From: Spirochaetota bacterium
GTDB lineage: Bacteria > Spirochaetota > UBA4802 > UBA5550
NCBI GenBank assembly: GCA_022709405.1
Contig: JAKLIV010000005.1
Location: 1-58,132 of the forward strand
DNA length: 58,132 nt
Reading direction: 5' to 3'
Positions 6,278 to 52,831 of this stretch are shown here, one piece after another (position 1 is the first letter of the stretch; the number at the start of each line of letters is the position of its first letter). The notes below the pieces were generated by a model. It worked only from the letters and a program-made list of their open reading frames with translations, was not told the DNA's origin and ran no database searches. The translations under genes were made by a program, and so were the position numbers.

Positions 6278-6984
6278 CGGGCACCTCCCGTAATGCTTTG
6301 CGCGCCAGCCGGAGCGGCCTGCGACGCGGCCTCCAGGGCTTTTGCCAGGGAATCCATCCCTTTTTCAACGCCCTTGATCGTTGCGCGCGAGGTTATGGTC
6401 GCGCCGGTTATGGCGGTTATCGCGTTCCGGGACAGGAGCTCGTCTTTGATAGAAGGGTCCCAGTCGCCTTTTTTGATTATAGTAATTTTATTTTTCCCGT
6501 TGAGCCCGGTGAACTGCTGCTGAAACCAGGGCGACATTTCCCCTTCTTCCTTCGCGTTTCCGGTTATGGTCTGCCAGAAGGTGTTTTTGCTCGCCACCTC
6601 GACCGAGCGGGCCCCGAGACCAGGGGTTTCGCCCTGCTGCAAAATCGACAGCCCCAGGATGGTCCCGGCCTCGTCCACGCCGACCATGGAAACGACGTCG
6701 CCGCTGTAACCGGTGCTCGACGTGATGAACGCATATGCTTTTTTTACCGCACCGGATTCATCCTTGTGCGCGGGCCAGTAAGAAAAATCGCCGCCGTCGA
6801 CCTTCACCGTCACCTTATCGCCGACTGCATAACCGGGAAGCACCATTGCAAGGGCGCGCTCCTGCTTCTCTTTTTCCTGTTTGAGGATGTTTGGATAGGT
6901 GATCTTTTTGATGTGGGACAACGCCATGGATGCGACCAGGGCGATCAGTCCCAGAACGAGTGTGGGTTTTACGATGTTGTTCAT
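6274..6984 (-). CDS. rnfG: Rnf electron-transport complex subunit G (FMN-binding)
   Basis: N-terminal anchor, then an FMN_bind domain with the covalent-flavinylation motif ITGATITSRAT. Confidence 0.9.
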   Translation of the reverse strand: MNNIVKPTLVLGLIALVASMALSHIKKITYPNILKQEKEKQERALAMVLPGYAVGDKVTVKVDGGDFSYWPAHKDESGAVKKAYAFITSSTGYSGDVVSMVGVDEAGTILGLSILQQGETPGLGARSVEVASKNTFWQTITGNAKEEGEMSPWFQQQFTGLNGKNKITIIKKGDWDPSIKDELLSRNAITAITGATITSRATIKGVEKGMDSLAKALEAASQAAPAGAQSITGGAR

Positions 6985-7012
6985 GAATCACTCCATCCGG
7001 TCCGGGAAAAAT

Positions 7013-8083
7013 TTATTTCACGCCAAACACCCGAGGTTTGGTGAACCTGTCTATGAGGGGCGTGGCCGCGTTCATGAGAAGGATCGAATACGATACTCCT
7101 TCCGGATAGCCGCCCCATATGCGTATGATAAACGTAATGGCTCCGCATCCGACGCCGAAGATTACCATCCCGGCGGCCGAAACCGGCGAAGTAACCATGT
7201 CGGTGGCCATGAAAAAGGCGCCGAGCATCAGACCGCCCGACAGCAGGTGAAACAGGACAGCCATCCACGGGCATGATAGGCCTGCGGCGGAGTAGTACGC
7301 GAAAGCGAGAATCCCCACTGTTCCGATGAAGGACACCGGGATGTGCCACGTTATTATGCGACGCGCAAGAAGAAAAATCCCCCCGATGAGCAGAAACAGG
7401 GCCGAGGTCTCGCCGATCACCCCGCCGATATTGCCGATGAACAGCGATTTGATCATCGATGACGAGAACAGAAAGTCATGGAGCTGCCCGATTCCGATAT
7501 TCATCTCCTGGAGGATTTTGGGCCCTTCCTTGAGCGCGCCGAGGGGCGTGGCCTGGGTTATGGCGTCAAAGGCCTGCTGCGGAAGACCGGCCGCGTTCTG
7601 GACTCCCCCGGCGAGAACATTCGATCCGGAAAACGGGACCCATCCGGTCGTCATATACACGGGCCATGAAGCCATCATGAATGCGCGCGCTCCCAGAGCC
7701 GGGTTGAAGATATTGAATCCCAACCCCCCGAAAACCTGCTTGACGATGATTATACCGAAAAACGAGCCGATCACAACCATCCAGGCCGGGGCGGTCGGGG
7801 GAACGTTCATTCCGATGAGAAGCCCGGTGATCACTGCCGACCCGTCGATCACGCTTATTTTCTTTTTCAGCAGGGCCTGATAGAGCGCCTCTGCCGCGAC
7901 AGCAGAAATTATGGAGGCCGCGATCAGAACCAGGGCGTGCAGCCCGAACGTGTAAACGCCGAAAGCGGCCGCCGGAACGAGAGAGGCCACCACAAGCCAC
8001 ATGATTTTTTGGACCGAATCGCCGGTCTTGATATGCGGCGCATTTGACAGGATCAGACCCTGGGTTTCTTTAATGTCAGTCAT
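7013..8083 (-). CDS. rnfD: Rnf electron-transport complex subunit D
   Basis: Polytopic protein. GGLGFNIFNPALGARAF and the flavinylation motif FMATDMVTSP match RnfD/NqrB. Confidence 0.93.
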   Translation of the reverse strand: MTDIKETQGLILSNAPHIKTGDSVQKIMWLVVASLVPAAAFGVYTFGLHALVLIAASIISAVAAEALYQALLKKKISVIDGSAVITGLLIGMNVPPTAPAWMVVIGSFFGIIIVKQVFGGLGFNIFNPALGARAFMMASWPVYMTTGWVPFSGSNVLAGGVQNAAGLPQQAFDAITQATPLGALKEGPKILQEMNIGIGQLHDFLFSSSMIKSLFIGNIGGVIGETSALFLLIGGIFLLARRIITWHIPVSFIGTVGILAFAYYSAAGLSCPWMAVLFHLLSGGLMLGAFFMATDMVTSPVSAAGMVIFGVGCGAITFIIRIWGGYPEGVSYSILLMNAATPLIDRFTKPRVFGVK

Positions 8084-9914: not shown

Positions 9915-10475
9915 ATGAATGATATCAAGCAACAGAACAACCTCAAAAATCTTCTTTTCAAAGAAGGCCTCCCCAACCCGGAAACGCTGTCCGAGCTAAG
10001 AAACAACCCGATTCTTCTTATCGACATCGGGTATGAGTATGTCGAGCAGGGGGAATACGAGCAGGCGTACGAGCTTTTCCGCATGGGAATGTCCATCGAT
10101 AACACGGATCTCGACATCGTCAACGGCCTCGGCATAACCCTGTGTGAAATGGGCAAATTCGAGGAGTCCAAGCAGGTTCTCGAACAGGCTCTTAAAAACA
10201 ATCCCAATGACGCAATCACGCTGGCGAACATCGCCGGGGTGTGCTGGGAGATAGAGGACTATGACCGGGCCATATACTACTACCACCAGGCGCTCCAGAA
10301 CGATTCGGAGATAGAGGAAATCTATTACAATCTGATCAATCTCTACATGGACAATGACATGCTTCACATCGCCTATATAACCGCGCTGGAATTCGTCAAA
10401 GCTTTTCCCGATAGCCAGGACGCAAAGGACCTCCTCAACGACATACTCATCAACATGGCCCTGTGCAATATCTGA
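9915..10475 (+). CDS. Tetratricopeptide-repeat (TPR) protein
   Basis: Repeated TPR-like 34-mers (EQGEYEQAYELFRMGMSID, EMGKFEESKQVLEQALKNNPND, EIEDYDRAIYYYHQALQND). Confidence 0.8.
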   Translation: MNDIKQQNNLKNLLFKEGLPNPETLSELRNNPILLIDIGYEYVEQGEYEQAYELFRMGMSIDNTDLDIVNGLGITLCEMGKFEESKQVLEQALKNNPNDAITLANIAGVCWEIEDYDRAIYYYHQALQNDSEIEEIYYNLINLYMDNDMLHIAYITALEFVKAFPDSQDAKDLLNDILINMALCNI

Positions 10476-10494
10476 ATCCCCGATCTGTAGTTAT

Positions 10495-11694
10495 TCAATC
10501 AAAAAGACTTCTCTTATATGACAGGCTCTCTTTCAACGTGAACAGATCGCTGCCCCGCGGTACGTCCCTGAGTTTCGTCATGAGGGTCTTGCTGTCGATC
10601 AGCTCGGAAAACGGCACAGCCTTGATGTCAAAATTATCGGTCACTGAAACCATCACGCCGAAATTTCTCTCCATATAGAACTTCGCAGCGCCGTAACCGA
10701 GCATGCTTCCGAGCACCACGTCGAATCCGGTGGGATGCCCGGACCTGATTTCATAACCGATCTGCTTGGCCGTGATCTTTACATCTATCCCCGTTTTTTC
10801 CCTGTACTTCGCTTTGGCTATCTCGGCAAGATGGGAGGCGACGTGGGCTTCGCTGAAGAGCAGGTTCCCGTGCCTGTCGGTCGCCTTGGGTTTCATTCCC
10901 TCAGGGAGCTTGTCGGCGAGCCCCTCGGATACGGCTATCACCCCGTAGGGCTTCCTGTCGTTTTCCCTGCTCAGGATAACATCCGCGATCTTCTCACCCA
11001 GCTCGTCGAGGTCCAGCGTGTCTCCCTCGATGTCCTCGGAAGAGATCATGAGGATGGATTCGGCCGCGACACCGGCCGCGTAGGTTATCCATCCGGCCTT
11101 GCGGCCCATGAGCTCCACGATGAAATAGCTGTCGGTCGACTGTGCGTCGGCCTTCAGGTTGAGCAGGATCTTCTGCGCAACGTCCACCGCGGTCCAGTAG
11201 CCGAATGTCCAGGCAATGCCGTAATAATCGTTGTCGATCGTCTTCGGGATATGGATCACGGGAAATCCCATGAGCCAGAGGTAATTTGCGGTTTTGAGGG
11301 TATCGTCGCCTCCGATCGAGATGAGGGCCCCGATCTGCAGATAATCGAACGCGTCGAGGATGTTTCTGAGTCTCACGTTTTTTTCCGGATCGTTCAGATC
11401 CTCCATAGTCTTGATGTCTTTCCCGGGATTGGCGCGGGAGGTCCTCAAGAAAACGCCGCTCCTGTTTCTGGCCTTGGTTATTTCGCGCGTGACATACCCG
11501 TAGTGCAGGTCCTTGCGGAGCTTCGGATAGCTTTTATTGAAATCCTGAAGGAATTCGTATCCCCGCATTATACCGATCACGGGAACATGGTTGTCCAGAA
11601 GGTTGAGCCCTATGGATGAAATCACCGCGTTCGCGCTTGGCGCGGGTCCTCCTGAAAAAAGAATACCCACTTTGTCAAACTTCGGTGTGGTCAT
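10495..11694 (-). CDS. pfp: Phosphofructokinase, PPi-dependent type by signature residues
   Basis: PFK family (GILFSGGPAPSANA, MGRKAGW). It carries GGDDT and PKTIDND, i.e. Asp and Lys where ATP-dependent enzymes have GGDGS and PGTIDND. Confidence 0.85.
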   Translation of the reverse strand: MTTPKFDKVGILFSGGPAPSANAVISSIGLNLLDNHVPVIGIMRGYEFLQDFNKSYPKLRKDLHYGYVTREITKARNRSGVFLRTSRANPGKDIKTMEDLNDPEKNVRLRNILDAFDYLQIGALISIGGDDTLKTANYLWLMGFPVIHIPKTIDNDYYGIAWTFGYWTAVDVAQKILLNLKADAQSTDSYFIVELMGRKAGWITYAAGVAAESILMISSEDIEGDTLDLDELGEKIADVILSRENDRKPYGVIAVSEGLADKLPEGMKPKATDRHGNLLFSEAHVASHLAEIAKAKYREKTGIDVKITAKQIGYEIRSGHPTGFDVVLGSMLGYGAAKFYMERNFGVMVSVTDNFDIKAVPFSELIDSKTLMTKLRDVPRGSDLFTLKESLSYKRSLFD

Positions 11695-43077: not shown

Positions 43078-43295
43078 ATTTTACTCACGCTGCAACGGCT
43101 GTTGATCGGAAACAATATGAAATCCGGAACTGACTCGTGATGGCACTGGAAAAAGCGGATCTAATGAACAGAGTGATACGTCTAACATATGCATGGCGAC
43201 ATGTCAAATAAATTACGCTGGATATAACTGTTTCCGTGAATACCGATCGTCTGCGGAGGGAAATGCACCTCATCCGGTCAAACGGTTTTTCCGCC

Positions 43296-43646
43296 TCAAC
43301 CGATGACGTACAGTATTTTATCGAAATCCTCGGATTTGTCAAAAAAGTAATCAGCGCCGAGATCCATGCATTTTTTCATGTACTGCGGCTCCGGATAATT
43401 TGTCAGAACGATAACTTTGGTGTCAGGCTGTTCTTCCTTGATTTTTTGCAAAACGTCAATCCCGCTTCCCCCATACAGTTTCAGATCAAGAATAACCGAA
43501 TCGGGTTTGCTTTCCCTGATGCCGTTTATTGCTTCCTTCGGCTCACCGGCGACTCCGCATATTTCAACCCCTTTTATGGTCGAAATCATTGAAATAATCC
43601 TTCCCCGAATGATAACAGAATCCTCAACTATGAATACCTTTTCCAT
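43296..43646 (-). CDS. Single-domain response regulator (CheY-like receiver)
   Basis: MEKVFIVEDS...DSVILDLKLYGGSGIDVL...KVIVLTNY...GADYFFDK. The start is taken at ATG 43646 rather than the ORF-track 43694. Confidence 0.85.
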   Translation of the reverse strand: MEKVFIVEDSVIIRGRIISMISTIKGVEICGVAGEPKEAINGIRESKPDSVILDLKLYGGSGIDVLQKIKEEQPDTKVIVLTNYPEPQYMKKCMDLGADYFFDKSEDFDKILYVIG

Positions 43647-43829: not shown

Positions 43830-44462
43830 CTATTCGATCAGGTGGTTGTTGATCACATAGTGGGTCAGCTCGGCATTATTCTTCATATTCATCTTTTCAA
43901 GAATCCTCTGCCGGTAAGTGCTTATGGTTTTCACGCTCAGAAAGAGATCCTGTGCGATTTCAGTCACCGTTTTCCCCGATGCGATCATGCAGACGACCTG
44001 ATATTCCCGGTCGGTGAGATATTCATGCAGTGGTTTCTCTCTGTCGTTTGCGATGCTGTCCGCGAGTTTTTCTGCCAGGGTCGGGCTGATGTACTTCCCC
44101 CCCCTGTATACTTTCTTGATCGCTTCGATCAGCTTTTCCCCGGCGGTTTCCTTGGTAAGATAACCCGATGCCCCGCCCTTGATGGTGCGCACAGCGTACT
44201 GGTCTTCCGGATGCATTGAAAGAACGATAACCGGAATATCCGCGTATTCCACCTTGAGCTGTTTCAGGATTTCGAGGCCGCTTCTGCCGGGCATTTTAAT
44301 ATCGAGCAGAATGACGTCGTAATCGCCCTCCCTGACTTTCTCGAGCAGCTCCTGTCCGTCCCTGGCTTCGCCTTTAACCAGCATGTCCTTGCTGTCCGAG
44401 ATTATTTGCTTCAATCCGGCTCGAACGATTTCATGATCATCAGCAATGATAATATTAATCAT
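43830..44462 (-). CDS. NarL/FixJ (LuxR-type HTH) response regulator
   Basis: Receiver IIIADDHEIVRAGL...VILLDIKMPGRSG, plus HTH LTDREYQVVCMIASGKTVTEIAQDLFLSVKTISTYRQRI. The AGGAG Shine-Dalgarno lies inside the end of the upstream kinase gene. Confidence 0.92.
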   Translation of the reverse strand: MINIIIADDHEIVRAGLKQIISDSKDMLVKGEARDGQELLEKVREGDYDVILLDIKMPGRSGLEILKQLKVEYADIPVIVLSMHPEDQYAVRTIKGGASGYLTKETAGEKLIEAIKKVYRGGKYISPTLAEKLADSIANDREKPLHEYLTDREYQVVCMIASGKTVTEIAQDLFLSVKTISTYRQRILEKMNMKNNAELTHYVINNHLIE

Positions 44463-44463
44463 T

Positions 44464-45888
44464 TTAATTCTCCTGCCTGACAGGGACTTTCACTTGCACC
44501 GTTGTGCCTGAATCCGAATTGGGGGATATGACCGCCTCCCCTCCGCATGAAAAAGCCCGCTCCCGTATCCCTATCAGCCCGAAGGACCTCGAATTTTTGA
44601 TAGCGTCTTTGTTGATTCCGATACCGTTATCTTCGACTTTAAGCTCGATCTGGCCATTTTCATATCTCACAATAATATTCACCTTTGTGGCCTGAGCATG
44701 TCTCATTATATTTGTCAGCGATTCCTGAAAAATTCTGAAAAGCGCCACGGATATTTTTTCATCCAGGTTCAAGCCGTTGACCATGCAATCGACGTCGCAC
44801 TCGATGCCGGTCCTTTTACTGAACTCCTCGGCCTGCCACTCGATCGCGGGCGACAGTCCCAGATCGTCGAGAATTCCCGGCCTTAAATCCGACGAGATCC
44901 TGCGCACAGTTTCAATGATGCTGTTGATGAGCTCCGACATCGAATTCGTTTTGTCGTGAAGCTCCTTCTGCTCCCTTCCGATGCGTTTCATCAGCCAGAA
45001 CAGATCCATCTTGAGTGCGGTGAGGGACTGGCCCAGCACATCATGTATTTCCCTGGCAATGTTCGTCCTCTCGGTCTCCCTCACCGTGACCAGATATTCG
45101 GAAAGGCTCCTGAATTCGTCCTGGGATTTGATCAACTCATTCAGGGCGTTTATCCTTTCACTATCATCCCTGATAATACCCTGAATGCCGTTTAAATTAT
45201 AATCTGAATGGATCACCGTCGAAGTTATCAATACCTGAATCTGCGTACCGTCCTCCTTTGCCAGGACAGCATTATGATCCACTACATACCCTCTTGAGAG
45301 GAGATCGGTCCAGAACCTGGACCATTCTTCAGGATTTAAGAAAAAGTCGGATATTTTTTTCTTTGCGATGACATCCTCATCGATCCCGAAAAGATTCAAA
45401 AGCGACTGGTTCACATTGGCGATGTTCCCGTCAATATCGCTCAGGAAGATCGCGTCCCTCGATTGTTCGAAAAGGGTGCGGTACTTGATTTCGCTCTCCT
45501 TCAGTTTCTTGTCGATCGTGTGCCGGTATATCGACGTTTCAATGGTCGTATAGAGCTCCCTCTCGCTGACCGGTTTGACGATATAGCCGTAGGGCTCGGT
45601 GACCTTTGCCCTCTGAAGAGAGGATTTGTCGGAATGGGCGGTAATAAATACTACCGGTATGCCGAATTCTTTGAGGACGATATTTGCGGTCTCGATCCCG
45701 TCCATCGAGCCCTTGAGCTTGATGTCCATGAGAATGAGGTCAGGCCTGTTTTTGGATATTTCCCTGAGGCATTCCTGGCCGGTTATGACAATTCCGGTGA
45801 CTGCATAACCAAGCCTTGTCAAGATGCTCTTGATATCGAGGGCGATTATCGATTCATCTTCAACTATTAGTATTTTTGTCGTATTCAT
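44464..45888 (-). CDS. Hybrid sensor kinase: N-terminal receiver, PAS, HisKA_3, HATPase_c
   Basis: Receiver KILIVEDE...LILMDIKLKG. PAS region. HisKA_3 H-box IAREIHDVLGQSLTALKM. HATPase motifs ESLTNIMRHA and EDNGIGI. The start is taken at MNTTKIL (45888). Confidence 0.88.
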   Translation of the reverse strand: MNTTKILIVEDESIIALDIKSILTRLGYAVTGIVITGQECLREISKNRPDLILMDIKLKGSMDGIETANIVLKEFGIPVVFITAHSDKSSLQRAKVTEPYGYIVKPVSERELYTTIETSIYRHTIDKKLKESEIKYRTLFEQSRDAIFLSDIDGNIANVNQSLLNLFGIDEDVIAKKKISDFFLNPEEWSRFWTDLLSRGYVVDHNAVLAKEDGTQIQVLITSTVIHSDYNLNGIQGIIRDDSERINALNELIKSQDEFRSLSEYLVTVRETERTNIAREIHDVLGQSLTALKMDLFWLMKRIGREQKELHDKTNSMSELINSIIETVRRISSDLRPGILDDLGLSPAIEWQAEEFSKRTGIECDVDCMVNGLNLDEKISVALFRIFQESLTNIMRHAQATKVNIIVRYENGQIELKVEDNGIGINKDAIKNSRSFGLIGIRERAFSCGGEAVISPNSDSGTTVQVKVPVRQEN

Positions 45889-46042
45889 TGGCCCGCTTAT
45901 GCCGGTGGATTTGCATTTCTGGTTATTGAGGAACACAATTCGACCCAGAAGCGTTGTTTAGAGTCCAGATAAAACCACAGCCATGATGATTTGTCAAGAA
46001 TTTCACGCCTCCAAACATATGAAAATAGTACAAGGCTCATTC

Positions 46043-46939
46043 TCAGCGCCTTACGGTTTTGAATGAATCCAATATTTTCTTTATATCATCTTTTTTACCC
46101 ACATAAAAATCATGCTCGCAGACAATCCTGACCATATATCCGATGCTGCCGTTAACGCAAAAGGCCTCATAGCCGGCAATTGACGGCTGCTGTTGATGGG
46201 AAATTTCATAAATTATCCGATTCTTATCCGCCGAGATCTTCCGCCTGAAAAAACTATCCGGGCCGATATTGTTCCGCCAGTTCTCCTCCAGCTGATCAAT
46301 ATCGTTCAGAGGAATCGGGAATGATTCTGCGTCGATGAAAATGAAAATATCGAACCTGCCTATCGAGCGCGGTATTTCTTTCGGCTCCTTCTCGATATCG
46401 ATCCCCACGGTCAAGCCTGAATACTTATAATGGAGATTCTGCCGTTCGCGATTCTTCAAAACCGTTACCTGGTTTGGCGCTTCTAATGAAAACCGGAGCT
46501 CGTCATCATGCAGGTGCGTCATCCCGTCAAAAACGGCCACTAAAACCGATGCTTCACTATTCCATTGTTCGAATCTGTTCCCATGCCTTTTTTTGTATTC
46601 ATTGATAAAAGATCCCGCATCCGCACGGCACTTGCGAATAATCATGTTTTTTTCAGGCAGAATCAGAATCGATTTCAGTATGCGAAGTCCTTCGACAGGA
46701 TGCAGCCTGATGATCTGTTTCCCGTGATTCAAATGGTATTCGACGCTTTCGGAAGATACGGGGGGGATTATCTCAGACGGCCGGTCAGGCGTGTAGACCT
46801 TGCCGTTTTTATCTATGAAGTATGAATTTCCGGCCCTGTCGCGAAAATACTTCCAGTCCGGCATCTGAGCATGCGGCATTTCAACTGCGGATGCAATGAC
46901 GCAGGACACAATAAAGCAGCGGATGCAGGTTTTCATCAT
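46043..46939 (-). CDS. Hypothetical exported protein (298 aa), last gene of the five-gene operon
   Basis: N-terminal hydrophobic signal MMKTCIRCFIVSCVIASAV. One cell-wall-binding-repeat-like stretch WKYFRDRAGNSYFIDKNGKVY. The start overlaps the upstream stop (TAATG). Confidence 0.65.
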   Translation of the reverse strand: MMKTCIRCFIVSCVIASAVEMPHAQMPDWKYFRDRAGNSYFIDKNGKVYTPDRPSEIIPPVSSESVEYHLNHGKQIIRLHPVEGLRILKSILILPEKNMIIRKCRADAGSFINEYKKRHGNRFEQWNSEASVLVAVFDGMTHLHDDELRFSLEAPNQVTVLKNRERQNLHYKYSGLTVGIDIEKEPKEIPRSIGRFDIFIFIDAESFPIPLNDIDQLEENWRNNIGPDSFFRRKISADKNRIIYEISHQQQPSIAGYEAFCVNGSIGYMVRIVCEHDFYVGKKDDIKKILDSFKTVRR

Positions 46940-47973
46940 TAAATAAGATTGAACAATATTATTCCGGCGACAATGATTAAAACGACAATGCCCAGCATGA
47001 GATAAATTATTTTCGAGTCATCGTTTTCCTTTTTTTCCGGTTCGTCATCAGGGAGATCCATCTGGACCTTGACGTTTTCCTCTTCGACGATTTTAGCGAG
47101 CACGCCCTTTGCGACGAGGGCGTAAATGATGTATCCGCCTTTTTCCATAGGTATCTTCGCCTTGATTCTTCCTTTGATCGGAGAAATATTTCCATCCTGA
47201 TCAATAGCGTTGAGGACGGTCAATATCTTGTTGGAAATTCCGTCGCGGCTGGCGAGCATCACCTTGATTTTTTCTCCTGCTGCGATGTCATTGATGTATT
47301 TCCCCTTGATCGGAGACACTATCAATTCACCGCTGATAACGTATTTCGCCTCGCTTTCGATGCTTTTCAATTTCTCTTCAAAGGGCGAAAGCTGCTCTGA
47401 CTGGATAGCTTCATCCCCGGGCCTGGCTCCTCCCGGAACCTCGATCGGTATTCCGCTCATATCAACGGCCAGGGAACTCGTCACACCGAGTTCGAGCTGG
47501 CACTGCACATCAGGCGAATTGAACGATTTTGTCAGCACCTCGAAGATTGTCTTCGTTAAACCGTCCAAATTCCCGTCGCTGACGTCAGGAAAGACATCAA
47601 AACCGATGAGCGAATCAAGAATATAATTCGTAAAATTGCCCGTATCTATTGTCTGGCCGTGCTGACCGTATGCCGTCATGTCATTGTAAAGCGTCTTCCA
47701 GTTGTCGAAAATCCTCACTTTCTCAAATATATCTACGTTAGTCGAAATTAATGCGGAAACGTTGGAGATGTATTCATCAATCGTGTTGATGAACGCCAGA
47801 AAAACGCCGGCCTGGCCGAGACTTTGCACGGCAAATTTGCATTTAATGACAATTATGTCCTGATACTGGCCGGAAACCATGGCCTTGGCCTTATCCATGT
47901 TTCCGGAAGTGAATTTCAGAGCATGCTCGATCAGTTTCGTTTTTTCATTTAATGAGCTATACTGTTCGGTCAT
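46939..47973 (-). CDS. Hypothetical tail-anchored membrane protein (344 aa)
   Basis: A single C-terminal TM helix IIYLMLGIVVLIIVAGIILFNLI is preceded by the acidic linker DLPDDEPEKKENDD. SPIKGK and SPIKGR motifs lie 47 aa apart. No family recognised. Confidence 0.65.
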   Translation of the reverse strand: MTEQYSSLNEKTKLIEHALKFTSGNMDKAKAMVSGQYQDIIVIKCKFAVQSLGQAGVFLAFINTIDEYISNVSALISTNVDIFEKVRIFDNWKTLYNDMTAYGQHGQTIDTGNFTNYILDSLIGFDVFPDVSDGNLDGLTKTIFEVLTKSFNSPDVQCQLELGVTSSLAVDMSGIPIEVPGGARPGDEAIQSEQLSPFEEKLKSIESEAKYVISGELIVSPIKGKYINDIAAGEKIKVMLASRDGISNKILTVLNAIDQDGNISPIKGRIKAKIPMEKGGYIIYALVAKGVLAKIVEEENVKVQMDLPDDEPEKKENDDSKIIYLMLGIVVLIIVAGIILFNLI

Positions 47974-48445
47974 CGCTTTTATCCTGATCCATCACAATGC
48001 TTTTTTCCAGCAGTTCGTATTTCTTATGCGGTTTGAGGTTTATCAATTTTCTGACACCCTGCAAAACCCTGAATTTATATTTGAGATCCGAAGTTATACA
48101 GTATATCCCCGTCTCATGGAGCTGGTCCGCCACAGCGGCGCTGTCAGCCGGAAGTTTAAATCCGAAAAACGGCCCCATGCTTTTAAGCAGGTGTTCAGGG
48201 GCGATGTACTTAATTGAAAGACTGTTAACCCCTATTTCCAGTCTCCTCAGGACGCGGTGCTTTTTATCCTTAGAATCCCATTCGTTCTTCCAGTTTTTCG
48301 GATTATCCGTGATCTGAACCTCTATCCTCTGCTCATCCTCATGCACTATGACCCGGACATACGTACTGTTTGCCTTGTATGAGGCCAGAAGCCCGAAAAG
48401 GCTGTCATCCCGGTTAGCGCTTATTATTCCCGAGCTTTTCATCAT
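47957..48445 (-). CDS. Hypothetical cytosolic protein (162 aa)
   Basis: ORF in operon context, overlapping the next gene by 17 nt. No family recognised. Confidence 0.55.
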   Translation of the reverse strand: MMKSSGIISANRDDSLFGLLASYKANSTYVRVIVHEDEQRIEVQITDNPKNWKNEWDSKDKKHRVLRRLEIGVNSLSIKYIAPEHLLKSMGPFFGFKLPADSAAVADQLHETGIYCITSDLKYKFRVLQGVRKLINLKPHKKYELLEKSIVMDQDKSDDRTV

Positions 48446-48462
48446 AACCTTTAGTCTCGTTC

Positions 48463-49011
48463 TTATACTGACGATATATGGTCATTGTAAATCCTGAGAA
48501 GCCTCCTCCGAAATAATGTATCGCTTAAAAACGAAACTTCCTCATCGTTCATTCCTATAAATACGCCGATATCATGAACCGATGTATTCCTGTTGATCCT
48601 CAGATACTCGATGACTTCCCTTTCGACCTTCGACAATGCGCCAATGTAAAAACTGTTGTTCTGGCGAATCCCATCCGTAATTACCGCTATTTCATTTTTA
48701 TTATATTGTGAGAACGATTTGAAGACTGAGTCAATATTAATTTCAGCAATTATGGATATATTTTTCAGTTTAACGTAAAATATCGGGTCGCTCTTCCAGG
48801 AATCGATGATCAGCCGCACAATCAATTCATCGATAAACGAAGAGTCGATCACGCGGATTCCTTCAAAGTCCAGCAGCAATACCTCGTGCGCCGAGATGTT
48901 CTTCATTTTATCCCGGATTTTTGCATACATCCGCCTTCCGACCGGCCTGGTGATGAGATCCGGCCCCCGGTGCTTGATTTCCTTTGTCAGTTTGCTTATC
49001 TCGGCAACCAT
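48463..49011 (-). CDS. STAS-like (DUF4325-type) domain fused to a C-terminal winged-helix-like domain
   Basis: VLLLDFEGIRVIDSSFIDELIV matches the STAS/DUF4325 core (compare SpoIIAA DLSGVxFMDSSG). The C-terminal EREVIEYLRINRNTSVHDIGVFIGMNDEEVSFLSDTLFRRRLL looks like a wHTH. The start lies 1 nt after the upstream stop. Confidence 0.7.
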   Translation of the reverse strand: MVAEISKLTKEIKHRGPDLITRPVGRRMYAKIRDKMKNISAHEVLLLDFEGIRVIDSSFIDELIVRLIIDSWKSDPIFYVKLKNISIIAEINIDSVFKSFSQYNKNEIAVITDGIRQNNSFYIGALSKVEREVIEYLRINRNTSVHDIGVFIGMNDEEVSFLSDTLFRRRLLRIYNDHISSV

Positions 49012-49012
49012 A

Positions 49013-49903
49013 TCATGCAGTCAGTGAAATCGAAATCTGTGTGCCGCTGAACGGCGATAAACTATTTTTGTAAAATATATACGACCCTGAACGTGTTTTA
49101 TTATACAGGGTCGAAAGCGATGCATTGTCTGATCGTATGTATATCATCCCGTTCAGTCGTTCGATGATGGAATTCACCTGACATAACCCATAACCGTATT
49201 CCCTCTTGCTTGATATCGGGGTGGTCAACGCCATTTCGATGAGTTTCGCTGGAGAATCGAATTGAATTTCCTTGTTCAACTCAAAGCTTTTTACAATCCC
49301 TATTCCCGAATCCGAAATTACGAGTCTGAATATCTTCTCGTTATTCAGGCTATAGGTCTGCATCGATAGATACCCGGACTCAAGACTGTGCTCGAAAATG
49401 TTCTGGCACAGCTCGGAAATCACTGTAACGAAATAATCGACCAGATTGTCTGAAAACCAGTGTTTAAGGATGAACGAAGCCCTTTTCCTGAACAATTCGA
49501 TCACGCCGGTTATTACTTTCACGCTTTCTCTTTCTTTGTTTGGTATCTCGACAATTTCTATTATTGTTTTGCTCACGGAACTCCTTTTAAGCATCATTTT
49601 CTCATTAAGCGAATCGGCCGTCTCAAATATTTCGGTTTTGAAAAAATCCATCCGCGAGAGGTACTGGTGAATGGCAAGCGGGATGCGAATCAGCTTCAGC
49701 TTAATTCCCCGCTTGAGGAGATACATTTTCCCGAGCAATAAAAATGAAAGCATCGAATACGGCTCTATGAAGCTTATTCTTGACAGGTCCAGGCAATCGG
49801 CGTCGCGGACAATTGTATCAGCCAGATTTATAACATCCTCAAAAGTATAGGGGTCCCTGAATTTATTTGGAAGCAACACTGTCTTTTTATCGGTCATTGT
49901 CAT
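49013..49903 (-). CDS. GHKL-superfamily ATPase / SpoIIAB-RsbW-like putative Ser kinase with a STAS-like N-terminal domain
   Basis: N-box ELCQNIFEHS, G1 SDSGIGI, G2 GYGLCQV. There is no HisKA/H-box. The N-terminal ~90 aa (CLDLSRISFIEPYSMLSFLLL...IPLAIHQYLSRMDFF) resemble a STAS-like module. Confidence 0.7.
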   Translation of the reverse strand: MTMTDKKTVLLPNKFRDPYTFEDVINLADTIVRDADCLDLSRISFIEPYSMLSFLLLGKMYLLKRGIKLKLIRIPLAIHQYLSRMDFFKTEIFETADSLNEKMMLKRSSVSKTIIEIVEIPNKERESVKVITGVIELFRKRASFILKHWFSDNLVDYFVTVISELCQNIFEHSLESGYLSMQTYSLNNEKIFRLVISDSGIGIVKSFELNKEIQFDSPAKLIEMALTTPISSKREYGYGLCQVNSIIERLNGMIYIRSDNASLSTLYNKTRSGSYIFYKNSLSPFSGTQISISLTA

Positions 49904-50011
49904 GTCAATTATTCAGTTGATTGGATCCAATTCCAGCCGATTGTCTTATCGCCCTTATTATTCTCGGTTTTTCTTTCCTTTATCTAAATTTATCTTTTCA
50001 ATGAGGATAAA

Positions 50012-50043
50012 TAAAAAGGGCTGTCCTTGCGGCACAGCCCTTT
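50012..50043 (-). terminator. Intrinsic terminator of groES-groEL
   Basis: The reverse strand reads AGGGCTGT-gccgcaagg-ACAGCCCT followed by TTTTT, about 35 nt after the groEL stop. Confidence 0.8.
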
Positions 50044-51747: not shown

Positions 51748-52032
51748 CTATTCAACGATAGCGAGCACGTCGTTCTCACTGATTATCAGATAATCTTTTC
51801 CGTCGTGCTTCACTTCAGCTCCTGAATATTTTCCGAAAAGAACAATATCCCCGGCCTTGACAGTCATGGGAATAATGTCTTTACCGTCCCTTTTCCCGGA
51901 ACCCACTGCAATTACCTTTCCCTGCTGTGGTTTTTCTTTAGCTGTATCAGGAACATAGATCGAGCCGACCCTCTCTTCCTCAGGTTCAACGATCTGTACA
52001 ATAATCCTATCAGCAATTGGTTTTAGTGCCAC
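51748..52032 (-). CDS. groS: Co-chaperonin GroES (Hsp10)
   Basis: 94 aa: LKPIADRIIV...GKVIAVGSG...KAGDIVLFGKYSG. GTG start preceded by AAAGGAGGG. Confidence 0.95.
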   Translation of the reverse strand: MALKPIADRIIVQIVEPEEERVGSIYVPDTAKEKPQQGKVIAVGSGKRDGKDIIPMTVKAGDIVLFGKYSGAEVKHDGKDYLIISENDVLAIVE

Positions 52033-52200: not shown

Positions 52201-52238
52201 TGATTATTAGCACTCATTAAATCGAGTGCTAATAATCA
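52201..52238. promoter_or_regulatory. CIRCE (HrcA operator) upstream of groES, with extended arms
   Basis: TTAGCACTC-attaaatc-GAGTGCTAA (52207-52232). The perfect inverted repeat extends to 15 nt per arm (TGATTATTAGCACTC / GAGTGCTAATAATCA). I count an 8-nt spacer, against the canonical 9. Confidence 0.85.
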
Positions 52239-52357: not shown

Positions 52358-52831
52358 TTATTTCACAATATAGTCCGATTTACCTCCTTTTTTTTCTTCA
52401 AGCCTGATTCCCTCAATCACCATATTCTTATCAACAGCCTTGCACATGTCATAAACAGTCAGTGCAGCCACAGCCACGGCTGTAAGCGCTTCCATTTCTG
52501 CACCGGTTTTTCCATCCAGACGGACCCGGGATGATATGCGAATACCCGTAGCTTCATGATCAATTTCCAGAGTAATGTCTATATAATTTATAAATAAAGG
52601 ATGGCAAAGAGGTATCAAATCATGACATCTTTTCGCACCCTGAATACCGGCTACCTTCGCAATTTCGAAAAGATTGCCTTTGGGCAGAATTTTTTTTTCA
52701 ATGGCTTCAATGGTTTCAGGACTCATTCTGACAAAACCCGAAGCCCGGGCGCTGCGCGAGGTAACCATCTTTTCAGTGACATCAACCATTGTCGGCGAGC
52801 CATCGGGGGAATAATGTGAAAAGTCCTGCAT
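52358..52831 (-). CDS. moaC: Cyclic pyranopterin monophosphate synthase MoaC
   Basis: MVDVTEK..T.R.A...IAKVAGIQGAKRCHDLIPLCHPL...GKTGAEMEALTAVAVAALTVYDMCKAVDK. Confidence 0.93.
   Translation of the reverse strand: MQDFSHYSPDGSPTMVDVTEKMVTSRSARASGFVRMSPETIEAIEKKILPKGNLFEIAKVAGIQGAKRCHDLIPLCHPLFINYIDITLEIDHEATGIRISSRVRLDGKTGAEMEALTAVAVAALTVYDMCKAVDKNMVIEGIRLEEKKGGKSDYIVK

Follow-up and report, generated by a model that had tools for sequence, protein, structure and literature searches.

The window, a stretch of 58,132 nucleotides of a Spirochaetota bacterium (contig JAKLIV010000005.1 of assembly GCA_022709405.1), carries five minus-strand open reading frames, here termed g1 to g5, that are packed with almost no intervening sequence (Table 1). 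A single nucleotide separates g1 from g2 (TGAtATG), the spacing between g2 and g3 is 17 nt with AAAGG ahead of the g3 ATG, g3 overlaps g4 by 17 nt, and the sequence TAATG is common to g4 and g5. The base composition of the block is ordinary. A sequence-only reading of this DNA had described the same arrangement, and the five frames, all of their junctions and the groEL terminator were recovered at matching positions.

Table 1. Genes, protein parts and RNA or promoter features of the five-gene block.
Feature	Position	Strand	Size or basis
groESL intrinsic terminator (hairpin, then U-run)	50015-50043	minus	RNA fold
Leader/promoter region	49904-50014	minus	Promoter scan and palindrome search
g1	49013-49903	minus	296 aa; ORF
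g1 STAS-like part	~49604-49867	minus	
g1 GHKL part	~49025-49456	minus	
g1 predicted catalytic Asn168 codon	49400-49402	minus	
g2	48463-49011	minus	182 aa; ORF
g2 STAS part (STAS-like, DUF4325)	~48697-48960	minus	
g2 Ser58 codon	48838-48840	minus	
g2 C-terminal winged helix	~48478-48642	minus	
g3	47957-48445	minus	162 aa; ORF
g4	46939-47973	minus	344 aa; ORF
g4 N-terminal alpha/beta domain	residues 1-175	minus	AF2 model
g4 small SH3/Tudor-like barrel	~residues 210-300; 47074-47346	minus	AF2 model
g4 C-terminal transmembrane helix	residues 319-343; 46945-47019	minus	AF2 model
g5	46043-46939	minus	298 aa; ORF
g5 predicted signal peptide	residues 1-24; 46868-46939	minus	
g5 invariant QMPDW motif, mature N-terminus	46853-46867	minus	

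The 5ʹ boundary of the unit is the groESL terminator, whose hairpin (-19 kcal/mol, z = -4.0) was equalled by none of 200 shuffled sequences and has similar counterparts upstream of g1 in many orthologous loci. The leader that follows holds a weak sigma-70-like site (a -35/-10-like pair at 49957-49986, found by promoter scan) and a perfect 12-bp palindrome, ATTGGATCCAAT, at 49920-49931, 17-28 nt ahead of the start codon of g1. The window contains a single copy of this palindrome, and at least one match appeared in 25 of 100 shuffles. It is a weak operator candidate only, because it is not kept in the closest relative (locus L006, 73% identical). Comparison of the loci revealed no conserved operator ahead of g1, where palindromes are about as numerous as expected by chance. 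RNA folding found no terminator at the 3ʹ end of the block (z = +1.6), and the earlier statement that the block ends before a two-component operon thus lacks terminator support; transcription may read through into the downstream two-component genes.

Conservation of the gene order

The arrangement g1-g2-g3-g4 recurs in the same order and orientation at about 48 loci, each in a different species-level genome of uncultured Leptospirales-like spirochaetes, and g5 follows g4 in about 42 of these. Gene order is kept down to roughly 40% identity, g3 and g4 strictly co-occur with g1 and g2, and spacers within the orthologous blocks are mostly short or overlapping. The best conserved gene is g1 (51-73% identity). 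The five-gene block is therefore not a chance arrangement, and the initial description of a tightly coupled, conserved unit that starts after a terminator holds. In 13 loci the g2-g3 spacer is longer, at 53-216 nt. A terminator lies in two of these spacers (L003 and L023), and sequences resembling TTGATA-N17-TATAAT are present in three (L027, L029 and L049).

A STAS-GHKL kinase and its candidate substrate

Two signalling systems reported in 2026, the stress switch CapK/CapS (‘controller of adjacent pathways’) and VapKSC, rest on datasets in which spirochaetes are absent (Chambers et al., EMBO J; PMC13373217). CapK phosphorylates CapS by an experimentally demonstrated mechanism, whereas phosphorylation of VapS by VapK releases an effector protein (PMC13373217). 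Residues 13-293 of g1 align to residues 66-362 of Enterobacter roggenkampii CapK (hhalign 96.6%, E 5.4e-10, 263 columns), a stretch that spans the STAS and GHKL domains of CapK, and g1 also aligns to VapK (hhalign 80%, E 1.4e-5). Other matches are to Pfam HATPase_c (E 6e-7) and, over the full length, to phrog_3364 (E 3e-23). E164, N168, H172, D198-G200-G202 and G237-G239-L240 are invariant among 24 orthologues, as are the N, G1 and G2 boxes. Judged from these alignments, g1 is a serine-kinase-type homologue of CapK/VapK whose kinase active site is intact. By contrast, the single-stranded-DNA contacts of CapK have not been retained: W68 aligns to g1 position 15, where orthologues have F, L, C or M, and K237 and K239 align to non-basic residues.

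The STAS-like part of g2 matches DUF4325 (E 1.7e-5; 23 of 24 orthologues), and a few orthologues match MarR_2, TrmB, HTH_24, STAS or STAS_2. When the g2 family profile was compared with the PDB, VapS (9z7o, E 0.002) and CapS (9z72/9z71) were matched. Alignment of g2 to CapS (hhalign E 2.9e-4) extends colinearly over 146 columns and both domains, placing ‘TDSS54F’ of CapS opposite ‘IDSS58F’ of g2, so that the phosphorylated Ser54 of CapS corresponds to Ser58, which is invariant among g2 orthologues. By these comparisons, g2 is a CapS/VapS homologue with a conserved acceptor serine. The sequence-only reading had rightly recognized a GHKL protein followed by a STAS-like and winged-helix protein. 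It had also counted the pair as part of an undescribed system, but the pair belongs to the CapK/CapS-VapK/VapS family, formed by a STAS-GHKL kinase and a STAS substrate (PMC13373217). Phosphorylation of g2 by g1 is likely.

With a mean pI of 5.3 and a net charge of -2.2, the winged helix of g2 is acidic, in contrast to that of CapS (pI 9.7), and the recognition-helix residues Q144, N145, S147, T148, R149, K151 and K152 of CapS correspond to E156, E157, S159, F160, L161, D163 and T164 of g2. The wing keeps basic residues, with R170 nearly invariant. Because these residues and the full CapS architecture are kept, g2 could still bind DNA.

In the SpoIIAB-SpoIIAA and RsbW-RsbV pairs, the target of the GHKL serine kinase is a serine that opens helix alpha-2 of the STAS domain. 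A classical anti-sigma partner switch, with g1 in the place of RsbW or SpoIIAB, g2 as the antagonist, a sigma factor encoded elsewhere and g3-g5 merely co-transcribed, would be consistent with the weak HATPase_c_2 match of g1 (E 0.003), with the STAS or STAS_2 matches of some g2 orthologues and with the structural resemblance of CapK and CapS to SpoIIAB and SpoIIAA (PMC13373217). However, we regard this arrangement as highly improbable. No sigma factor or PP2C phosphatase gene lies in or beside the block in the window and the related loci inspected, and g1, which contains a STAS domain itself, resembles CapK more closely than it does any anti-sigma kinase of solved structure (best PDB sequence match, E 0.06). 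The strict co-occurrence of g3 and g4 with the pair also argues against this reading.

The cargo proteins and their genomic setting

The g3 protein is a strict orphan, predicted to be cytosolic. Its family comprises 36 clusters by a word-based search, and its profile found only 38 matches among 1.84 billion representatives. Neither a sequence search of Pfam and the PDB nor a fold search of the PDB with its AF2 model (pLDDT 83.6, pTM 0.74) returned a match, the latter at E < 0.03. In almost every locus the distance from g3 to g4 falls between -35 and +15 nt, and the two genes are almost always translationally coupled.

For g4, the AF2 model (pLDDT 82) has no whole-chain fold match in the PDB or BFVD, with only barrel-sized Tudor/chromo matches. 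Its family exceeds 142 clusters, and all matches with a source name are from Spirochaetota. A full-length alignment links it to NCBIfam LIC10486_fam (NF047678; E 1e-17) with 64 bits, where the cut-off is 500, and it scores 19.8 bits against Pfam DUF4899 (cut-off 25), which is matched by 14 of 23 orthologues. Because these scores are far below the curated cut-offs, g4 is a remote relative of DUF4899/LIC10486 rather than a member. It shares similar length and spirochaetal origin with those proteins; LIC10486 of Leptospira is known only as a seroreactive hypothetical protein.

A g4 paralogue, homologous over its full length and with the same architecture and tail anchor, was found at 15 further loci (L051-L065), and 25 positions reach 90% conservation or more when both groups are taken together. 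Directly upstream of this paralogue in 14 of the 15 loci is a single-domain CheY-like receiver, which stands in place of g1-g2-g3; g5 was not detected at these loci. Thus, the paralogue, like g4, is directly behind a phospho-signalling protein. Single-domain CheY-like receivers act through protein binding. Some genomes carry both systems (L022 with L055, and L029 with L061).

The exported protein g5 evolves fast (24-45% identity) and is absent or undetected in about six loci. Residues Q25, W29, D34, G37 and N38, immediately after the hydrophobic segment, are invariant among 25 orthologues. No Pfam family was matched except by one member, which matches a choline-binding repeat (E 0.0015). Since g4 lacks a periplasmic segment, nothing evident would connect it physically to g5. 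The predicted locations given earlier (g3 cytosolic, g4 tail-anchored and g5 exported) agree with the AF2 models and the g5 alignment. Of the three proteins called orphans, none matches a housekeeping family, but g4 is not fully orphan in view of its sub-threshold matches.

Single-transmembrane-helix effectors are common in defence systems. On such a reading the cargo would serve in immunity, as most CapKS-associated operons do, perhaps through a membrane-disrupting tail-anchored protein unleashed when g1 senses infection. Relatives of g1 do occur in phages and prophages, namely phrog_3364, gp32 of Gordonia phage Phishy (near an integrase) and a 293-aa Francisella prophage protein paired with a DUF4325 protein. 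Moreover, immune operons, either known or predicted, follow the pair in 348 of the 443 capKS loci, and VapKSC gives protection against a phage (PMC13373217). However, none of the five proteins matched a PADLOC model, no integrase or mobile element adjoins the block in the window, and base composition is unremarkable. The locus is also syntenic, with groESL upstream in 18 of 48 loci and a convergent GNAT gene and a SPOR gene downstream in 38 and 37, respectively. The cluster is confined to a single spirochaete clade, in which the sequences appear to have diverged vertically. Stable chromosomal synteny without defence matches argues against a mobile defence island. The conflict or defence role once listed for this block is therefore unsupported, and an anti-phage or abortive-infection function is improbable.

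Proposed output of the switch and relation to known systems

We propose that the block is a chromosomal, lineage-restricted operon in which a CapK/CapS-type phospho-switch (g1 and g2) is joined to membrane-associated cargo (g3-g5) and acts at the protein level, a composite reading with about an even chance of being correct. A cytoplasmic cue would act on g1, an anti-sigma-factor-type STAS-GHKL kinase, which would phosphorylate g2 at the invariant Ser58 of its STAS domain and thereby change the binding partner of g2. As long as it is unphosphorylated, g2 would use the STAS domain and the acidic winged helix to retain g3, either by itself or in complex with g4. Once phosphorylated, it would free g3/g4, the presumed target of the switch, and alter the activity of tail-anchored g4 at the inner membrane face. 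Any role of g5 would be that of a co-expressed component in the periplasm or envelope.

Output at the protein level is favoured over transcriptional derepression because the g2 winged helix is acidic and lacks the DNA-contact residues of CapS, although we hold this preference tentatively and with low certainty. The close g2-g3 spacing in the window, the coupling of g3 to g4, the lack of a conserved operator upstream of g1 and the receiver preceding the g4 paralogue point in the same direction. In the transcriptional alternative, which follows CapKS, a g2 dimer would repress the promoter in front of g1 and, in some lineages, another one located between g2 and g3. Once g1 has phosphorylated Ser58, the dimer would fall apart and repression of g3-g5, as stress-response cargo, would be lifted. 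The 13 loci with long g2-g3 spacers count against our preferred reading, as they match the CapKS arrangement, in which a regulator precedes cargo with a promoter of its own, and contain promoter-like sequences or a terminator. The loss of the CapK single-stranded-DNA contacts from g1 likewise counts against it, as do the missing periplasmic segment of g4 and the CapS architecture and basic wing residues of g2. Transcriptional control would also agree with the colinearity of g2 with CapS, its kept acceptor serine, the MarR_2, TrmB or HTH_24 matches of some orthologues, the palindrome ahead of g1 and the experimentally established CapKS mechanism (PMC13373217). Nevertheless, we consider it rather unlikely: CapS DNA-contact positions are now acidic or hydrophobic, the palindrome is lost even in the nearest relative, and in most loci, the window among them, g2 and g3 are too close together to accommodate a promoter.

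The block parallels CapK-CapS in that a STAS-GHKL kinase gene is directly followed by one for a STAS and winged-helix protein of about 182 aa, the kinase Asn and ATP-binding boxes are kept, the acceptor serine is in a ‘DSSF’ context, and the pair heads an operon of other genes. It departs from CapKS in that g1 has no N-terminal HTH, there is usually no intergenic promoter region ahead of the cargo, and the cargo does not correspond to a known immune operon. In the first of these respects g1 instead resembles VapK, which also consists of STAS and GHKL parts and whose F54 aligns to the invariant F45 of g1. VapK-VapS-VapC, a toxin-antitoxin/defence system identical to the group that PMC5499597 lists as ‘PIN.4 coupled to DUF4325’, operates by a protein-level logic in which the STAS protein holds an effector until phosphorylated, and by analogy we suggest the same for g2. 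However, g2 has a full winged-helix domain where VapS has a short C-terminal helix, and three unrelated cargo genes take the place of a PIN/VapC gene. Unlike SpoIIAB/RsbW modules, the block has no sigma factor or PP2C partner nearby, its kinase carries its own STAS domain, and its substrate carries a winged helix. Thus, the type of kinase-STAS switch is already known, whereas the cargo g3-g5 and this particular architecture are new.

Organization and conservation of the five-gene operon

A five-gene sensing and effector operon had been proposed downstream of groES and groEL (together groESL) from the sequence alone. Its five minus-strand ORFs, here called g1 to g5 in the order of their transcription, and all of the junctions between them were recovered exactly in the ORF list and in the sequence. 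A single nucleotide separates g1 from g2, and a 17-nt gap containing an AAAGG ribosome-binding site separates g2 from g3, whereas g3 and g4 overlap by 17 nt and g4 and g5 are joined by the arrangement TAATG. Base composition is ordinary throughout the block. On the 5ʹ side, the groES/groEL transcript ends in a strong terminator hairpin with a U-run behind it (50015-50043; -19 kcal/mol, z = -4.0), and a weak sigma-70-like site lies upstream of g1 at 49957-49986. A search for a terminator 3ʹ of g5 found none, and therefore the 3ʹ boundary of the unit is provisional.

Coordinates of the operon genes and of associated features in the window and in related loci
Feature	Sequence	Position	Strand	Product	Remark
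g1	window	49013-49903	minus	296 aa	
g2	window	48463-49011	minus	182 aa	
g3	window	47957-48445	minus	162 aa	
g4	window	46939-47973	minus	344 aa	
g5	window	46043-46939	minus	298 aa	
groES	window	51748-52032	minus		CIRCE-like repeat upstream
Hybrid histidine kinase/receiver and LuxR-type response-regulator genes	window	43830-45936			Replace GNAT/SPOR genes
Convergent GNAT and SPOR-domain genes	L001, related locus	9996-11091			3ʹ of g5
Convergent GNAT and SPOR-domain genes	L005, related locus	10040-11084			3ʹ of g5
CheY-like receiver and g4-paralogue genes	L060, g4-paralogue locus	6506-6946 and 6980-8056			Example of the pair

The leader of g1 was also searched for a conserved operator. A perfect 12-bp palindrome, ATTGGATCCAAT, is located 17-28 nt 5ʹ of the g1 start codon (49920-49931) and occurs once in the window. 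The idea of a conserved operator was rejected because the palindrome is absent from the closest relative (locus L006), because perfect-arm palindromes 5ʹ of g1 occur at about the chance rate with no operator-like palindrome conserved across loci, and because the g1 leader and the g2-g3 spacers share no convincing k-mers.

The AT-rich leader of groES carries a CIRCE-like inverted repeat on the minus strand, TTAGCACTC-N8-GAGTGCTAA (52207-52232). By this repeat, groESL, the operon ahead of the five genes, may be under heat-shock control of the HrcA type. A standard pattern search for canonical CIRCE with its 9-nt spacer returned no match, since the spacer of this repeat is 8 nt.

Relatives of g4 form more than 142 clusters at 90 % identity, and every match whose source is named derives from an uncultured Spirochaetota metagenome-assembled genome. 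A single scan of species-representative genomes yielded 64 loci, all of them labelled Spirochaetota or Leptospirales. As judged by tblastn and ORF clustering, about 48 loci keep the order and orientation of g1 to g4, and about 42 have g5. Identity to the window proteins ranges over 51-73 % for g1, 31-66 % for g2, 37-69 % for g3, 34-72 % for g4 and 24-45 % for g5. The spacers between operon genes are short or the genes overlap, as is nearly always true of g3 and g4, and g2 directly follows g1 in 47 of 48 loci.

The flanks are stable as well. The groES-groEL pair lies immediately 5ʹ of the block in 18 of 48 loci, and in most genomes g5 is followed by a convergent GNAT acetyltransferase gene (38/48) and a SPOR-domain gene (37/48). 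In the window and in L006, these two genes are replaced by a two-component pair. Ahead of groES, a MoaC-like gene is found in the window (52358-52831) and likewise in loci L001 and L002; its recurrence in 16 of 48 loci indicates that the synteny of this clade reaches past the five-gene block. The block is a vertically inherited chromosomal locus rather than a variable island.

Two details of the two-component region were recorded. The ORF call for the hybrid kinase (44464-45936) begins at a GTG, 16 codons ahead of an MNTTKILIVEDE receiver sequence at which the protein probably begins in truth. A further receiver-like stretch just downstream (43275-43646) exhibits 32 % identity to the LuxR-type regulator.

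In most loci the gap between g2 and g3 is too small to hold a promoter. However, 13 loci have a g2-g3 spacer of 53-216 nt that contains a terminator or promoter-like hexamers. Widened junctions of 71-216 nt are found in a subset of lineages, for example in L003/L023 (7424-7512) and in L027, L029 and L049 (about 6430-6521). These wide junctions carry either a GC-rich hairpin and T-run right after g2 or a TTGATA-N17-TATAAT-like promoter, and in the genomes concerned g3 and g4 may be transcribed apart from the first two genes.

The probable g1/g2 kinase-substrate pair

The first two proteins can be compared with a recently described signalling family (Chambers et al., EMBO J 2026; PMC13373217). 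In that work CapK, the kinase of the 'controller of adjacent pathways', consists of HTH, STAS and GHKL kinase domains, and CapS is a repressor with STAS and winged-helix (wHTH) domains. Single-stranded DNA activates CapK, CapS becomes phosphorylated at Ser54, and the CapS dimer dissociates, which derepresses the neighbouring genes, for example a CBASS, Bub or Thoeris operon. The HTH domain of CapK is dispensable in a reporter. In the related VapKSC system, VapK (STAS-GHKL, with no HTH) phosphorylates VapS and thereby releases the PIN toxin VapC.

The Pfam match of g1 is to HATPase_c, and phrog_3364 matches the protein over its full length. Alignments were made with the CapK and CapS sequences taken from the reporter GenBank file, and with the VapK sequence taken from the AF3 model file, of PMC13373217. 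Using hhalign, the g1 family matches E. roggenkampii CapK with a probability of 96.6 % (E 5.4e-10, 263 columns), such that g1 residues 13-293 align with CapK 66-362, the entire STAS and GHKL part without the HTH. Only about 12 residues precede the start of this alignment, and orthologues are 291-312 aa long; g1 therefore has no N-terminal HTH. The match to VapK (80 %, E 1.4e-5, 231 columns) begins near both N-termini, and VapK F54, a residue linked to the sensing of single-stranded DNA, aligns with an invariant phenylalanine of g1, F45. The catalytic residue N218 of CapK aligns with g1 N168, and E164, N168, H172, the DxGxG motif (D198, G200, G202) and the GxGL motif (G237, G239, L240) are invariant in 24 g1 orthologues; the GHKL active site is intact. 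The residues by which CapK contacts single-stranded DNA are not conserved: opposite W68, g1 has F, L, C or M (position 15), and opposite K237 and K239 it has S185 and N187, neither of which is basic.

For g2, the Pfam match is to the STAS-like DUF4325, found in 23 of 24 orthologues. A profile of the 24 g2 orthologues searched against PDB sequences matches Escherichia VapS (9z7o, E 0.002) and also the 184-185-aa CapS entries 9z72 and 9z71, in which the two domains align colinearly with those of g2. Direct comparison with CapS by hhalign gives an E value of 2.9e-4 over 146 colinear columns. The segment TDSS54F of CapS aligns with IDSS58F of g2, which places the phospho-acceptor S54, on STAS helix alpha-2, at g2 S58. 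Neither S58 nor D56 varies among the 24 sequences. Within the 182 aa of g2, the winged-helix domain occupies about 55 residues. It is acidic in nearly all orthologues (mean pI 5.3, net charge -2.2), as is its putative recognition helix (net charge -1.7), whereas the winged helix of CapS has a pI of 9.7 and a charge of +3. In the hhalign pairing, the CapS recognition-helix residues Q144, N145, S147, T148, R149, K151 and K152 correspond to E156, E157, S159, F160, L161, D163 and T164 of g2, which appears from these alignments to have lost the DNA-reading residues of CapS.

The matches of g1 to CapK and VapK and of g2 to CapS and VapS, together with the active site and the acceptor serine, identify g1 and g2 as a kinase-substrate pair of the CapK/CapS-VapK/VapS family. 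We infer with good support that g1 probably phosphorylates g2 on Ser58.

Relatives of g1 were noted in temperate phages. A tblastn search for phage homologues of g1 returned only one weak match, in the temperate Gordonia phage Phishy (MW862986.1, 28280-29131). This gene, annotated 'histidine kinase', shares 25 % identity with g1 over the GHKL half and lies between tail genes and an integrase/immunity cassette. In a Francisella prophage, genes for a 293-aa protein and for a protein with DUF4325 form a pair beside the CI repressor (PMC7924643). The Phishy and Francisella genes look like VapK/VapS-type modules borne as prophage cargo.

The three cargo proteins

No Pfam, PDB-sequence or fold match was obtained for g3, despite an AF2 model of good quality (pLDDT 83.6, pTM 0.74). 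An exhaustive search of 1.84 billion representative proteins with the g3 profile returned 38 matches, all of which belong to the same short family or are fragments of it.

In the AF2 model of g4 (pLDDT 82), an N-terminal alpha/beta domain is followed by a disordered linker and a small SH3/Tudor-like barrel, and the chain ends with a transmembrane helix. When the g3 and g4 models were compared with PDB folds, no match fell below E 0.03, and the only matches were SH3/Tudor-sized, to the g4 barrel. PDB profile searches with g3 and g4 were empty, and g4 had no match in BFVD. A UBA-like N-terminus and a PilZ-like barrel were each considered for g4 and dropped, with no Pfam support among 23 members. 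Profile scores for g4 are 64.1 bits against NF047678, the LIC10486 family (cut-off 500), and 19.8 bits against PF16240, DUF4899 (cut-off 25). By these sub-threshold scores, g4 is a remote relative of both families; DUF4899 is the one Pfam family that it matches. LIC10486 is a seroreactive hypothetical protein of Leptospira interrogans that is otherwise uncharacterised, and no gene-neighbourhood context for it was found in the literature.

A paralogous group resembles g4 over its full length (26-32 % identity) and has the same tail-anchored architecture, but occurs without g1 to g3. Across the two groups, 25 positions are at least 90 % conserved. The paralogue scores 52 bits against NF047678 and is thus as distant from that family as g4. 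In 14 of 15 such loci (L051-L065) it directly follows a single-domain CheY-like receiver, and some genomes carry both the g1-g5 operon and this pair. A DUF362/4Fe-4S gene is often located upstream of the pair. Since g4 shares an operon with a kinase/STAS pair and its paralogue follows a receiver, the g4 superfamily is wired repeatedly to phospho-signalling proteins. The protein g3, which shares the receiver's place, was also considered as a degenerate CheY-like receiver. This candidate was rejected because its order of secondary-structure elements is not (beta-alpha)5 and no receiver is among its fold matches.

In g5, which evolves fast, the signal peptide precedes a motif that does not vary, QMPDWxF(F/Y)xDxxGN. 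No Pfam family matches it, with the sole exception of one orthologue that weakly matches a choline-binding cell-wall repeat. A word-based search recovered only 10 g5 homologues, the remaining orthologues being taken from the loci. In about six loci g5 is absent or escaped detection.

Proposed output and comparison with known systems

We tentatively favour, at slightly less than even confidence, an output in which g2 would act as a protein-level partner switch on g3 and g4, following the logic of VapKSC. This preference is based on the acidic recognition helix that does not resemble that of CapS, the lack of operators, the tight translational coupling of the genes and the CheY-like receiver that accompanies the paralogue of g4. 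A serious rival, itself unlikely in our estimate, is CapKS-type transcriptional control by g2, which retains the CapS architecture in full, its wing being basic, and in some lineages is followed by separately promoted cargo.

A role in defence is quite improbable. Most published CapKS cargos are immune operons, and temperate phages carry relatives of g1. However, PADLOC returned no match to g1-g5, the locus is syntenic, and its distribution is limited to a single clade. Classical sigma-factor control is more improbable still: as distinct from SpoIIAB/RsbW systems, the window flanks and loci L001-L005 contain neither a sigma factor nor a PP2C phosphatase.

Extending the protein-level switch to the whole locus, g3 to g5 could constitute a spirochaete-specific envelope pathway whose hub would be the tail-anchored g4 superfamily (including DUF4899/LIC10486), a new class of membrane-tethered signalling output. 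In the g1-g5 operon this output would be driven by a serine-phosphorylated CapK/CapS-type STAS switch, and at the locus of the paralogue by a CheY-like receiver phosphorylated on aspartate. A CapK/CapS module would then have been recruited for protein-level control of a core process, and not for transcriptional control of an immune operon. We regard this complete scheme as possible but doubtful.

The sequence-only reading holds in describing a dedicated sensing and effector module, but not in treating its signalling pair as undescribed, because the CapK/CapS family has been known since 2026 (PMC13373217). What is new in the pair is its architecture, an HTH-less kinase with a winged helix predicted to differ from the DNA-binding type; also new are the phylum, the chromosomal context and a three-gene cargo that resembles no known immune system. 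The kinase-STAS pair here belongs to one chromosomal operon, inherited vertically, in a phylum other than that of published CapK/CapS, and the receiver pairing of its paralogue makes g4 a testable candidate for a membrane signalling output. If the protein-level reading is true, the operon would bridge the use of the module in transcription (CapKS) and in toxin release (VapKSC). It would also offer a first lead to the function of three orphan families, among them the wider DUF4899/LIC10486 family of pathogenic Leptospira.

CapK/CapS has been presented as a module that senses DNA damage and controls mobile immune operons, for the most part those of proteobacteria, with a known or predicted immune operon following 348 of 443 cases (PMC13373217). 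The datasets of that study contain no spirochaete entries, and a literature search for further work on a cluster of this kind found none. As in CapK/CapS, a STAS-GHKL kinase directly precedes a STAS and wHTH partner in which the acceptor serine is kept. However, g1 lacks the HTH and does not keep W68, K237 and K239 of CapK, the winged helix of g2 is acidic with the CapS contact residues replaced, and the g3-g5 cargo is not a recognised immune operon. Like VapK, g1 has STAS and GHKL domains and no HTH. In contrast to VapKSC, no PIN match is present in g3, g4, g5 or their families, and the 182-aa g2 has a winged helix where VapS (about 116 aa) has a short C-terminal inhibitory helix. By sequence comparison, the g1/g2 combination is therefore intermediate between the published systems, pairing a VapK-like HTH-less kinase with a CapS-like winged-helix substrate.
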